58,102 bases of DNA from Candidatus Omnitrophota bacterium (lineage in GTDB: Bacteria > Omnitrophota > Gorgyraeia > Zapsychrales > Zapsychraceae): NCBI GenBank assembly GCA_018812705.1, contig JAHJCZ010000184.1, positions 1-58,102 on the forward strand, given 5' to 3'. The first letter of the stretch is position 1. The number at the start of each line of letters is the position of its first letter. The position numbers were made by a program, and so were the translations under genes. The notes beneath the pieces are model-generated. The model was not told the origin of the DNA. It worked only from the letters and a program-made list of their open reading frames with translations, and searched no databases. This document shows positions 35,901 to 47,900 of the stretch, piece after piece.

Positions 35901-38900
35901 GTAACCTGCGACTACTGCTATTGTCCATGCTCCACCTGTTAATGCTGCTCCTGTGATATGGTAGAATGCGATTACCGCGATCTGTCCTAATGCTCCTGTC
36001 ATAAGAGCATTTAAGAATCTGCTGTATTTTGGACCTTTGTGTGCATCTACTGGTGCATATTTGATCTTGCTTAAGTTTCTTGCACTTAGTAATGTTCTAG
36101 CAAGTACTGCGACAACGCCCATGATCGCTGCAGCAACAACTAATCCTGTTGGATCTGATACGAAATTAACTGTTAATAATGCTGGCTTTGTCATCATTAC
36201 AGCCATAAGACCAGTTGTTGTGATCATGCTTGTGTAGCTCAATAAGTCCAATAATGTCTTAGCTGGTGATAAGATCGCTGTCTTAACTGTTGATAAGAAT
36301 GCTCCAAGAACTGTTGTATGTTCTTCATTGTTAACACCCTTGATGTTTGCATCCATTTCTTGAGCTGTCTTATCTGCTGCCTTGATACGTGGAAGAATAT
36401 TTTTGTTGAAGATCATGATTACGAATACAGCTACGATAGCAACTGGAATTGCCCAAGCTGCAGGGATGCTTGATAATGCTGAGATCGTGCTGATAAATGC
36501 TGTCTTAATAGCTCCGAAGAAATTGATATAAGTAAATACTGTTGCTGCGATGCTTCCAACTGCGACAACTGCTGGCATTAATCTGATAGCTTTTCTTTCA
36601 GCTGATTCTTTAACTGTTGGCATTTTGATGTTGTTTTTGCCGAATACTTCTACAGAAGCTATGTCTGCTATTCTTGCTAATAATGTGTCATATGCATTCT
36701 TGATGTTGACTCTTTGCTCTGTTCTCTTATGTAGAGGACTTTGGCTATTCCATGCTTGATATGTGTGTACAAATTTATCTAATGCTTGTTGTGACTCTTC
36801 AATGCTTGAGAAGAACAATGATGCATGAGCTGCAAATATATTTAATAATTTTGCTCTTGTATCTGCTTGTTCTTTTGGAGTTAATTTGTTCCATTCTGTG
36901 TCAGAAACATATGCAATACGTCCTGGCTTGATAGTTGCTTGCCATAAGTTCAAGAACTTGTTCCAAGCTGCCTGAATATCTTCTTGTCCTTCTTCTGCAG
37001 CTTCAATTGATTGGCGTGTTTGCTGTGCTAATCTATTTCTTAAAGGAGTAAGTATTGTTCTTGCTCTTCTTCCTGGGAAAATTCTTGCGAAGACTGAGCC
37101 TAATTGAGCTTTAGCTTCAGATGCTAAGCCAGGATTTTGTACGAAGATCCTGTCTTTTAATGACCAGAATGCTTCTCTTCCAGACTTTTCACCTACTCTT
37201 CTTCCAACGCGATCAAGCAACTGTCTTTCGTCTAATGACGATTCGCTTGCATGTGTTGAGATAACCCAGAATGTCTTTCCTTGTGCTCTTGCTTCTCTTG
37301 ATAGCTCAGGGTCAATACCTTGGATTGCGAAGCTTGTTACTATCGTTACCATTCCGATGTTTCCAGCTTTTGCGATCTTTGCGCTAATCGCTTGGGCATC
37401 TGATGAATCTTCTGCGTCAGCCCATTGGATCATGTTGCTTGCAACGCCAGCTGCTTCTAATTTACTTACTAAGTCTTTTCTAGTTGCCACTGCATCAACT
37501 TCTACGATAACTGCATCGCCAGCTGCTTGCTTAGTTACGATTGATCTAACAGCTGCTGCCATCTTGCTTTCAGCATTATTGAAGAACTTAACAACTACAT
37601 CTTTGTGTGTACTCTTTGTTCCAAATCTTCTTGCATTGATCCTGTTTCCGAATACTGCCTTAACATCATCTTCATCAAGTGTTCTTGTTGCACCTGCGAT
37701 CGATGCGATATGTCCAGCATCTGCAAATCCCTTAAGAGTTGTTCTGTTATTTACTTTTCTTTGTGTTGTTGTTGCGTTTCCTAGCTTGAAGTCTATTGCC
37801 TGATGTAAACCATGGCTCAATCTTTGTCCTTGTAGCGCAGCACCACTTCTGCTGATAAGAACTGCTTCTGTCCCCTTCCTAAAGAAATCAACGTCTTCAT
37901 TGTAGTAAAGCTCTACTGTAAGAGCATTTTCGACTCTTTGTACCCAATGCTCTAAGTTTGCATCTTTTCCGATTTGTGCTCTTAATGCTCTCTTTCCTCT
38001 AGCTGTCAATGTTACTTTTCTTGCTACATCATCTGTGTCAAATTCTCTAATAAGTCTTCTGTTTCTTGCAATTACTGCCTTAGCGAAGGCATCTGCATCG
38101 CTTAGAATTACATTTAATCTGTCTACGAATGCATCAACATTTTCTCCATTTACGTACTCAGCATCTCCGATCTCGCTTCCTGTTACGATAAATGGCGTGA
38201 TAGCTTCCTTCAATAATGTGACCTGGATCTCATCAGCCAAGATTGCCCATTGGTTATTCATTTGTACTTGAGCTCTAATATCAGTTGCAAATTGCTCTGC
38301 TAGAAGGTCAAACACTGGCTGAGATACAACCGTGTAGATCACGTTTGCTTCCCTATATAAAGATTCTCTGCTTACTGCTGTTGCTTGACCATCAACAAAT
38401 GTGTATCCTGTTAATTCTTTTTCGTCATTGTTTGCTGGAGCAAAATATCCTACTTTTCTGCCTAATTTTGATAATATCTCATTTGCTTGGTTAGCATCAC
38501 GGCTTGAGAAGTAATGTCCTGTTACAAAGACCATTACCTTGCGTCCTGGATTAGTTCTCATGATCATTTCAGCTGCTAAGATGTAAGCGATTGTCTTACC
38601 ACCAGCTAATTCAGCTAAGTGGATATCATCTTTAGCACTTCTAGCTAACCAAGCTGCGAATTCTACCTGTTCGTTCCACTTATCTTCGTTCCATGTTGTT
38701 CCAGGGAAACGTCTTTCAACCATTGCCTTAGCAATTGGTTCAATTGCTTTAACTGCTCTTTTTTCTGTTTTTGTTAATTCAACAACATTCTTTCTGGTCG
38801 CTGTCTTCACAAATACTCCAATCGCGCCAATCACGGCTAGAATTCCTAAGATCACTGCTGTAACTGCCCATGCTGGCCAAGTCGTTGGGGTAAAGACTTC

Positions 38901-44900: not shown

Positions 44901-47900
44901 CTTTTCTAGATCAGTTTTTTCATCGAACAAGAATCTATTGTCTTCTAGTGAAAGAATGATCTGGTGTCTTGTTCCTTTAGCTGCACCAACACGGTTAGCA
45001 TTATCAGGAGCACGACCTAATTCCTGTTGCCATCTTGTTTCTGTCTGGAGATCAGTAATAATAACATTCAAGCTATCTAATGATGGGCCTTCTGTCTTTC
45101 TTGCCCCAGGGTTAAGACCTGTAACGTCACCAGCAACAAGGACTATTAGAGACTCGCCATTTTCCAACCTACCCATATAAAGCTTCTTATCCTGGACATT
45201 TTGTTCAGGATCATGCCCAGAAACATATTTGACAATATCAGGACCTAGTTCAGCGCTTAATGCTTCATATGTTGCCTCGAGATCAGAATCCGGTCCAAGA
45301 ATTAGATATCCAGCTCTATCTCCTCTTGCCATTGAAGCCCTAAATCCTTTAGCTGCTTCAGATACTACTCTTGCACTTTGCTCATCCCTAGAATCAACTA
45401 CTATTGTCTCAAAATGCTTATCTCTTGGAGATAACGGATCTTCCTTACTTAAGACAACTGTCTTTGCTCCTAAGTTCCTGATCGGCTGCTCAATAATATC
45501 AGGTGTAGCTGACATGTACACAAACTTGCCTCGGCCAAAGAGTTCAATGGCCTCTATCATGTTGATACTCTTATCCTTGCGTGAGAAATATGCATTAGCT
45601 ATAAATCTCTTCGCATCCTGCTCATTAAAATCCTTTGATGGGTCTGCAATGTGCTGTTTAGCAATAAGAGCTGTGACAAAAGAAGCTAACAGCTTGTCAC
45701 CAAAAACTGTCCTTAATAAAGCAACTCTGTCAGAACCATAAATATCATATAATGTTCCAGCCATTCCCTGAGATTCTAGTTCACGTACTCTCTTTGCTGT
45801 CATGAACATCTCTTGCTCTGTTACAAAATCATTATTTCTAATCTTAGCCTTTAATCTACCATACTCAATGTACTCTTCTAATGAGCTTGGACTCTCTTCA
45901 GTCTTTTTATAAAAATCAGTCTTTTGGAAATCTTTTCCTTCAATTAACCAGAATGTCTTTGCTAGCGCATTCAATACTGGCCTAAAGTTTTCAAATGTCC
46001 TGTAACTTTCAGGAATATAATCTAATTCTTTATTTAACTCTTCATAGATCTCTTTAAATTCCCTGTTATATGCAGGCGAGAATGCGACTTCCAGCCGGTC
46101 TTCAGCCTCTGAACCACTGCTGATTTTTGTATTAACTAATAGATCTTTCTGCCCTTGAGCAGCTAATTTTGCCTTTAATGTAAGCACTTTCTCTAAAGTA
46201 GCTGTAATGAAATCGGCTGTAGGATCTGCAGCACCTTCAATCAATCTAGACGTCAAGCTACTATAGATATCTCCCTGTCCTTTAATTTGCTCTTGACCAT
46301 CTAGCGCAACCTGTATATCATCAGCTATTGCTGCAATTATCTTTCTATCGCCATCCTCCGGCATTGAGAAACTCTTACCTTCGTTCTTGACCTCGCCACC
46401 TCTGTTAATAAACTTACGCATTTCAGATACACGGATCACATATGGTGATTCTTCTCTTTTTTGTGATTGTAAGAAATCGATATCTTCTTGACCTACTCTA
46501 AGCTCTTGCCCTCCAACAAACTCTGTAGTTCTTGTAAATCTAGCCATATTACTCATCAAGCCAAAGACTATCATTACAGGAATATCATTCTTGTATCCAT
46601 CTATGTTCGCTTCAGATGGAACAATAACTTCAACTATTCCGCCTTCTCCTAGTCTTTGTACACTATGCCATCTTAAGAAAGCAAGAGTTGCAGCATATTC
46701 TGCAAAAGTTTTCCCCTTTCCAACCTTTTCAAATATAGCTAATGCGTCTTCCTCTTGGGTCATCTTCATTGCAGAAAGAACTGAATGAACAAACTGATCC
46801 GGATCATCAAGTCTAAGTTTGTCCTTTGGATATTCGCCCTTCATGATATCAAAAACTTGACTTACGTCAGAATAAGCCGCAACAACACTATCAATAATCT
46901 GGTCTTTAGTTGTGATTGAAATGCTTTGATAGCCTTGATCAGAAAGCTCTTTTAGCTTAGCCTCAAGAATCTTCAGTGATGCTCTAAAATCATCTCTTGT
47001 TAATGGAGTACTTTCTAATTTTGATGTGTCTGATGCAACAGCTGCTGCCTTAACAAAATATTGCAGACCCTTTGTTGTTGGGTCTGACAACATAGCTACA
47101 TCTTTTTCAGTGATAATGCCTGCTTTAGGTAGAGCGACCGGCCTTGTTGCGGTTGGGGTAATAGTTCTTGTAAACTGTGGTCTTATTACGTTAGATTCTT
47201 CTTTGCCTTCAATAGGTGGAGCTAGGCCGGTTTTAGCTGTAATCGGTCTATTCGCCTCTAATTTAGCTCTTTGTTCTTCGCGTTGTTGGGCTAATTCTTC
47301 TAATTTCTGTACTCTTGTACTTCTAACAGCTGCAGGATTTGTATTTGCAACAGCAGCTGTGCTTTCTGTTCTTATTGCTTGATCTAATCCCTGATCATAT
47401 CCTTCTCTAGTTTGAGTTCTGTTAACGCCTTCTAGTGCATTAACATCAAGATCCTTGGCAAATGCTCTATCAGCTTCTCTAGATGTCTTTAATGACTCCA
47501 ATACCTTAGTTAAAACAGTGTTACCTGCACCATCTTTAAATACTGGGATCATCTTAACCGGCTCATCTTGATATACTGCATAATCTACAACTGGCTTCTC
47601 TCCAGGTAATGATAACTGGCCAACAAGGTTTTCTGACCATTTGTTTGCAGCAGTTTTATGCTCAACTAATAATAAAATTCCTTTTTCAGGTGCAGCAACA
47701 GCATTTAATGCGCCTGATTCGCTTACTTCATATATCTTCTTGTCTTTTGCATCTGCTACATAAACTGGTTTGCCCTTCATCTTTTCTTCTGCCTTAAGAG
47801 CAGCTGCTTTTGCTTTCAGATCATCAAATGAAATAACACCTTCAACTCCTAAAGTAACCACGCCATTCTTATCCAGCTTGAACTTAATTGCCATATCAAC

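Follow-up and report, generated by a model that had tools for sequence, protein, structure and literature searches.

A SecA-derived motor joined to a conserved ten-helix membrane domain within a giant open reading frame of an Omnitrophota bacterium

The 58,102-nucleotide contig JAHJCZ010000184.1 of a Candidatus Omnitrophota bacterium (assembly GCA_018812705.1; contig C117 in our labels) was analyzed in its entirety and is hereafter called the window; it belongs to a 2.7 Mb, 93%-complete genome and encodes, on the minus strand, a giant protein containing two modules related to the export motor SecA. As assembled, five long minus-strand frames succeed one another without gaps, broken by one stop (51,507-51,509) and by frame changes near 32,149, 29,660, and 20,939. 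Where the frame changes occur, contigs from public sequencing runs have a single extra base, seen at all three sites in X1-X3 and at one site in X4, and the contigs of X1, X2, and X4 have a different base at the in-frame stop, where X5 has no coverage; X1 may be the source sample, and the remaining runs are from other studies. Because the stop and the frame changes are absent from the contigs of other runs, the window is read as a single frame (3-58,100) of more than 19,300 codons, open at both contig ends. The alternative of five separate genes or a pseudogene is ruled out by the same break-free contigs. Thus no separate genes occur within the window, and the flanks of the gene lie beyond the contig. 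Both SecA-like modules are encoded in one 6,470-codon minus-strand frame.

The second of these modules along the gene, hereafter the clear module (38,789-36,642, minus strand), includes a SecA motor with both nucleotide-binding domains (NBD1, NBD2) and a preprotein cross-linking domain (PPXD) clamp (37,137-38,789), followed by a scaffold helix and a two-helix finger without the wing (36,642-37,076). A previous sequence-only reading of the window had called both modules SecA homologs from short motifs, and those listed for this one (GKT near 38,600, DEIQ at 38,234, GLHQAI at 37,811, QLLDRVGR at 37,223, and SLKD at 37,163) are all present on the minus strand. Homology is supported by Pfam (SecA_DEAD, 1.7e-13; SecA_PP_bind, 1.9e-8, marking the preprotein cross-linking domain; P-loop_SecA, 1.6e-5, below its cut-off) and by solved SecA chains, which match at 1e-18 in a PDB sequence search. 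NCBIfam SecA models also match, far below their full-length cut-offs (TIGR03714, 97 bits versus a cut-off of 930). Of the three Pfam families that had been suggested as a check, SecA_DEAD and SecA_PP_bind are thus found in the clear module, SecA_SW has no match there, and the other module matches none.

Profiles and a predicted structure nonetheless support a scaffold helix and a two-helix finger in this module. The helices ahead of the transmembrane (TM) block match residues 708-840 of Thermotoga maritima SecA (profile E value 4.5e-5), and the same stretch aligns to the two-helix finger of housekeeping SecA (HHalign 70%, E 4e-5). Model residues 1-152 resemble residues 583-733 of Mycobacterium tuberculosis SecA2 (Z 7.0, root mean square deviation [rmsd] 4.0, 141 aligned), a middling score, although no other SecA is listed and the match covers the residues expected. 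Each of these signals is moderate and all agree; a single-sequence test for the finger failed, so that profiles alone detected it. The wing domain is absent, about 17 residues separating scaffold and finger in the model. The clear module therefore has every motor part except the wing, including the finger, the part of SecA that guides or pushes the chain into SecY in the accessible text of PMC6599042. Retention of scaffold and finger corrects, for one subfamily, the published lack of a scaffold.

Directly behind the finger lies a ten-helix membrane domain (35,397-36,608), followed by an eleventh, signal-like helix ending in A-V-A (35,331-35,396; low model confidence), the predicted start of export. 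Under the positive-inside rule, basic residues mark cytoplasmic loops, and those of the window alternate as for ten helices with both ends inside, plus the eleventh. Ahead of the motor, a second signal-like segment, ending in A-Y-A, forms a hairpin (38,805-38,966) with a TM helix that has basic residues behind it, an arrangement predicted to put the clear motor in the cytoplasm. The hairpin, the membrane block, and the exported region had all been noticed previously, but were assigned to the other SecA module, whereas they flank the clear one; the block, which had been placed within 36,700-46,800, lies outside at 36,608-35,331, and its helices number about 11 (ten plus the signal-like one) rather than the 12 or so proposed.

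This membrane domain belongs to a family found behind SecA motors. We fetched 50 regions around extra SecA_DEAD matches, from 41 genomes picked for having several such matches, and found a related TM block directly behind the motor in 16. A TM profile built without the window and genome G317 finds the window's block over 400 residues (E 3e-10; the next frame of its own genome scores 2e-3), and a family profile that includes the finger matches 46 of 391 genomes of the class. None of these 46 is one of the 21 further genomes from the six families of the same order that were tallied at the outset. An in-frame upstream SecA motor accompanies 29 of the 34 newly found TM members, and four of the five misses are at contig ends. 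The family comprises at least 52 matches, none of which is a stand-alone small gene among the matches listed, with several frames cut by contig ends. By hydropathy, members have 8-12 helices, mostly 9-11, and an uncharged, mildly hydrophobic helix (best 17-residue hydropathy mean 0.75-1.83 across members) follows the block in all 15 relatives viewed, sometimes past an insert of about 150 residues. These observations establish the motor and TM block as a real conserved cassette, of fixed order and jointly inherited. An earlier impression that the block was genus-specific, derived from single-sequence searches that gave no convincing match in 300 other genomes, the protein database, or contig collections, was overturned by the profile searches. 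Three other loci with TM helices behind SecA (G460, L131, and L136) fall outside the family.

A model built from a 52-row alignment (predicted local distance difference test [pLDDT] 78; predicted template modeling score [pTM] 0.78; the final 60 residues poor) begins with an extended scaffold helix, has only a short loop where the wing would be, and continues with the finger and then the TM bundle. For the TM part, Foldseek returns nothing at E 0.001 or better, and the top VIA match (Z 8.7 over 81 residues) is a small helical bundle; the fold searches turn up only small generic bundles and no channel at a significant score. SecY does not appear among the matches listed by these searches, although a remote relation to it may still exist. 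Comparison with the genome's own SecY, against this one sequence, yields an HHalign probability of 0.3%; Pfam SecY has no match in 18 members of the TM family, and the TM profile finds nothing in the protein database. The analogy drawn earlier with accessory SecA2/SecY2 systems thus gains no support from sequence or predicted fold as far as the membrane block is concerned.

In the first module along the gene, hereafter the divergent module (44,727-46,889), two RecA-like domains are accompanied by a PPXD-like insert and by the beginning of a scaffold helix. Its reported motifs (GKGKT at 46,721, DDIQ at 46,322, SAT near 45,512, and QELGR at 45,026) were likewise confirmed on the minus strand. 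It has no match in Pfam, NCBIfam, or PDB sequence searches, and BLAST against the clear module gives nothing significant. An 18-row profile, however, matches a mixed set of aligned SecA sequences at 73% in local HHalign mode (E 3e-5) and at 97.6% in global mode, versus only 4% against housekeeping SecA alone. Counting the window, relatives are found in 8 of 401 phylum genomes with a single sequence and in 12 of 401 class genomes with the profile, along with five proteins among protein cluster representatives; the profile finds nothing in the metagenome scan. Every genome match sits in a frame of 2,857-44,966 codons. Weak second matches of the profile (26-41 bits) upstream of the main module in P0002, G286, and G139 are possibly further, more decayed SecA copies.

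The predicted structure of the divergent module (pLDDT 83, pTM 0.84) bears on whether it is instead a nucleic-acid translocase or another superfamily 2 ATPase unrelated to export. Against 48,161 representative chains, the top match is DinG (Z 16.8, with 336 residues aligned at rmsd 3.9); SecA representatives, among which no SecY-bound chain is listed, score lower (Z 13.0-14.1) over 347-390 residues. In addition, the module does not match housekeeping SecA profiles, and no two-helix finger is detected by profile in the 380 residues past motif VI, a stretch lying mostly outside the model. On the other hand, Foldseek ranks 1-14 are all SecA, and the model aligns to SecY-bound SecA chains over 502-506 residues (best Z 18.6, rmsd 4.6), to other SecA states over about 390, and to DinG over about 350 (Z 16.9); the roughly 150 residues gained over DinG fit a shared PPXD insert. 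The SecA motifs also align in order, and for a stored relative SecA families are named on 8 of the 10 Atlas rows shown, all below 0.9 and taken as leads only. We regard a role unrelated to export as improbable and, from profile and model, read the divergent module as SecA-derived with a clamp (PPXD) insert, while noting that descent from SecA does not fix its substrate. No TM block was detected next to it. The ATPase-plus-membrane unit proposed earlier consequently holds for the clear module alone; the divergent module, with its weakened Walker B and no detected finger, is no part of it.

In SecA the Walker B glutamate is the catalytic base, and the motif V arginine matters as well. The clear module keeps Walker A, Walker B (Asp-Glu, DE), and the two arginines of motif VI; in motif V it has Gln instead of the arginine, and the motif VI glycine is changed too. 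Walker B is DE in all 46 Pfam-type giant modules, and all 17 cassette members of the tree described below have both the Walker A lysine and DE. In the divergent module Walker A is intact and Walker B is Asp-Asp (DD), without the catalytic Glu; DD occurs in 6 of 16 divergent modules, the window included, and Glu in the other 10. The motif V arginine is missing from all 16 divergent rows, as it is from the window's clear module. Walker B mutants bind ATP without hydrolyzing it, according to the accessible text of PMC7503281.

These changes could mean that in this lineage one of the modules, or each of them, has lost catalysis and is a dead scaffold, a view favored by DD in the window's module and its fellow family members, by the uniform loss of the motif V arginine, and by the two motif changes in the clear module. 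However, all 15 divergent members with coverage there have the Walker A lysine, all 16 have the first arginine of motif VI, and the ratio of nonsynonymous to synonymous substitution (dN/dS) against G317 is 0.10-0.21 over the modules (0.10 in the C-terminal third of the divergent module plus the following stretch, 0.14 in the clear motor, 0.17 in the finger, and 0.21 in the TM block). The modules are under purifying selection, and we consider dead scaffolds very unlikely.

Phylogeny of the motors alone (71 rows, TM columns removed, excluding modules below 75 bits and divergent fragments shorter than 600 residues) placed the cassette motors in one group (SH-like approximate likelihood ratio test [SH-aLRT] 95) and the divergent motors in another (99). 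Both stand apart from housekeeping SecA; the tree tool warned of long branches. Presence of the cassette requires 2 changes on this tree versus 15.5 when shuffled, and the one row that intrudes is truncated at a contig end. Duplication of a single module in place was rejected (approximately unbiased test, p-AU 5e-41, on a quick tree with long branches present): the two modules of the window are not duplicates of each other. Frames with several SecA modules occur elsewhere, with a divergent and a clear one in G317 and G274 and two clear ones in G405 and G055, and G143 has two SecA matches in one 45,379-codon frame. In G274 (L080, contig G274:C27, about 3,100-5,750), a divergent module is followed by a nearly complete SecA with wing and finger and without a TM block.

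We assign the divergent module to an older backbone of the giant gene; the cassette is likely a later insertion, derived from another lineage of giant genes. In four relatives (G286, G250, G139, and G392), the last helix ahead of the cargo has the textbook form of a signal or lipoprotein peptide, and in the window such a textbook signal sits immediately ahead of the cassette. The most economical interpretation is an insertion of the cassette behind the old signal peptide. A first signal-peptide-like segment, identified by sequence (42,216-42,290; basic, hydrophobic, with a small-residue ending and presumed cleavage), precedes a low-complexity linker with short repeats (39,057-41,606) that is weakly selected relative to G317 (dN/dS 0.7, dS 0.11). 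Over 38,787-41,606, the linker has a dS of 0.11-0.24 and a dN/dS of 0.7-0.8, versus a dS of 0.5-1.0 in the other regions compared, perhaps reflecting recent recombination. The same interval holds a 296-codon low-complexity frame on the plus strand, and Rfam finds nothing in 36,000-47,500.

Downstream of the cassette, the predicted exported region of about 5,100 residues (19,976-35,330) includes an amidase (Amidase_3, 6e-7), coiled coils, beta-rich stretches, and a GH2-like barrel (Glyco_hydro_2_C, 2.6e-4). Its length, as first estimated, is obtained only when the sequence is read across the three frame changes, which other runs' contigs lack. From the block to residue 324 of the last frame no helix exceeds the hydropathy cut of 1.6. 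Among 12 relatives scanned downstream of the cassette, 5 have matches to families of the cell wall, glycans, or periplasm, namely M23, LysM, GH76, PG_binding_1, MdoG, or DUF4434 (two of the five below the Pfam cut-off), 3 have other matches, and 4 have none. By eye, a beta-barrel-like stretch and coiled coils like those of membrane fusion proteins can be discerned at 26,200-27,400 and 31,900-33,000; Pfam has no match to these stretches, which may form an envelope-spanning conduit.

The last frame additionally contains six internal prepilin-type motifs (G/A-F-T-x-x-E followed by a hydrophobic run, mostly a TM hairpin) on the minus strand at 12,341, 12,011, 10,808, 9,905, 4,967, and 1,865. None occurs in 494,338 residues of other giant stretches, though the pattern was defined post hoc, after the motifs had been seen. 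It also marks seven pilin-like N-termini and one other large frame of this genome, which has a prepilin peptidase. The motifs are possible cut sites of a polyprotein.

Our leading reading, held tentatively and at a little short of even confidence, is that the cassette is a tethered, dedicated export motor for the downstream region of about 5,100 residues, acting at SecYEG with the ten-helix domain as docking partner. In this scheme, SecYEG would insert the TM helices during translation, leaving the motor tethered in the cytoplasm, and helix 11 would begin the passage of the downstream region through the inner membrane. The clamp would hold the chain while the finger pushes it, as described for SecA-SecY (PMC6599042, accessible text); ordinary SecYEG would supply the pore, and the ten-helix domain would dock to it. 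Signal peptidase may cut the A-x-A sites on both sides, releasing a free cassette unit of about 1,190 residues. The divergent module would likely act as a clamp or slow ATPase, not as a second pusher. We favor SecYEG as the pore because cassette hosts keep SecY, because the same cargo stands behind ordinary signal peptides in relatives, and because most giant SecA modules lack the TM block. SecY is present in all 10 cassette hosts tested, and the window's own genome has one Pfam match, on another contig. Two of the 10 hosts (L209, G566:C195; L210, G636:C45) have a second, divergent SecY, about 21% identical to that of the window's genome and beside metabolic genes, which is a candidate accessory channel.

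Several observations speak against this proposal. Support for the cassette clade falls below 95 after 15 rows are dropped, the topology was derived from hydropathy and charge without a trained predictor, and helix 11 was chosen by eye without a control. Of the 46 giant SecA modules of the Pfam type in the tree, 29 have no such block. The motif V arginine, which 14 of the 17 cassette members keep, is gone from the window's motor, as is the motif VI glycine. Cargo homologs occur behind the divergent motor in G286, G250, G139, G205, G025, G379, and G392. In 15 such stretches, which reach 2,000-11,000 residues downstream and are not whole genes, the cassette profile matches none and the SecA profile only G274; as the cargo is thus found without the cassette in the stretches fetched, the cassette is not universally needed for it. 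Finally, the wing contacts SecY, and its absence may hamper SecYEG binding (PMC7503281, accessible text).

A private pore retains some probability because ten conserved helices exceed what an anchor needs and because the SecY-contacting wing is gone. The ten-helix domain would then itself be a protein-conducting channel, and motor and pore would constitute a SecY-independent, single-chain translocase for the downstream cargo, the clear module alone being involved. SecY has ten helices with both ends inside, and the domain is predicted to have the same count and sidedness. It is tightly coupled to a wingless motor with a finger, and the model (pTM 0.78) holds finger and bundle together. For tethering, a single anchor helix would suffice, and one is already present upstream; helix 11, moreover, is only mildly hydrophobic in most members. 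Weighing the other way are the failure of the SecY comparisons (own SecY by profile, Pfam SecY in the 18 members), the existence of giant SecA modules without the block (two thirds of them or fewer), and the occurrence of the same cargo without the cassette. We consider a channel unlikely on balance, though deserving of more weight than the other alternatives to docking at SecYEG. The broader claim, that the cassette is a new-fold, SecY-independent translocase, class-wide and swapped as a module by giants exporting their own outer parts of several thousand residues, appears equally doubtful.

It is also conceivable, but quite unlikely in our view, that the cassette is cut from the polyprotein and acts in trans, or performs other membrane work such as pulling prey-derived polymer inward. 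The A-x-A signal-like ends that flank it and the presence of the cargo in relatives without it are consistent with this, and the six prepilin-type motifs, versus 0.008 expected from block shuffles, suggest a processed polyprotein. Against it, the signal-like helix and long region that follow the block in the 15 relatives viewed fit action in cis, and no stand-alone small gene occurs among the 52 matches listed (several of their frames being cut by contig ends).

Other parts of the giant frame encode further recognizable domains. A CheR-like methyltransferase domain occurs at 49,500-49,700 (Pfam 3.7e-8), and a second CheR-like stretch is visible by eye near the 5' end (57,200-57,900). The end of the last frame (3-8,700) includes cytosolic-type enzymes, namely PTS enzyme I-like domains and a CofD-like domain, as well as a HAD-like stretch seen by eye. 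The interval 14,000-20,900 is conserved but carries no annotation; it contains clusters of TM helices and shares 24-40% identity with G392, G025, and G379 over more than 1,000 residues. A likeness of this part of the last frame to glucan synthases was not confirmed, there being no PDB match.

How proteins of 20,000 to more than 100,000 residues reach the surface of ultra-small bacteria is the question addressed here, and it is now narrowed to one defined unit, whose roughly 1,190 residues are few enough for expression and of which there are at least 52 natural variants. Should the membrane domain conduct protein, SecY would be joined by a second kind of SecA-driven channel; should it merely dock on SecYEG, the cassette would still be a new built-in export accessory. 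In addition, an entire SecA-derived subfamily escapes counts based on Pfam. The occurrence of SecA-like domains in such giants and the idea of self-export are already published; new here are the retained finger, the conserved ten-helix cassette, the presence of two non-duplicate modules, and the Pfam-invisible subfamily. On the finger, the ten-helix family, and the subfamily we found nothing in a literature search that covered mostly sources other than subscription journals, preprint figures, and supplements.

Among known systems, the accessory SecA2/SecY2 pathway uses an extra SecA together with SecY2 to serve a huge serine-rich adhesin, and the window likewise ties an extra SecA to one huge surface protein. 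Unlike that pathway, the window contains no SecY2 or accessory genes, its membrane block is not detectably SecY-like, and all parts are in one chain. The closest precedent is the description of divergent SecA domains beside TM helices in Omnitrophota giants, for which export of the giant itself was proposed (West-Roberts et al. 2023, bioRxiv 10.1101/2023.11.21.568195). The window shares with these proteins an Omnitrophota host, a very long frame, many TM helices, SecA DEAD and preprotein-binding domains next to TM helices and separate from housekeeping SecA, and cell-wall enzymes in the cargo; its more than 19,300 codons are a lower bound, to be set beside the 30,000-residue length cut of that study. 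A type II/IV secretion locus and pilZ genes as neighbors are a further trait of that class; in the window, the gene runs off the contig at both ends. In the accessible text of that preprint, scaffold and wing are said to be lacking and the TM helices are an anchor, whereas here scaffold and finger are kept and the helices form one conserved ten-helix family. The searched text does not mention two copies or a Pfam-invisible subfamily, although its supplementary domain diagrams may show several copies. A second preprint (bioRxiv 10.64898/2026.06.07.730766) reports a SecA DEAD-like domain (PF07517) as common in membrane-anchored giants, in a cluster of 20 proteins; its accessible text has a single mention of SecA, does not analyze the module, and suppresses internal signal-peptide calls on later chunks as artefacts. 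Mycobacterial SecA2 (PDB 4UAQ; short wing, PMC7503281, accessible text) resembles the clear module in having scaffold and finger without a full wing, but it stands alone and acts in trans, whereas the window's motor is fused to a membrane domain and a presumed cargo. Housekeeping SecA-SecYEG (PDB 6ITC; PMC6599042, accessible text) has the same two nucleotide-binding domains, clamp, and finger, while the window's motor is only about 21% identical to the genome's own SecA, dispenses with the wing and C-terminal tail, and is fused to the membrane.

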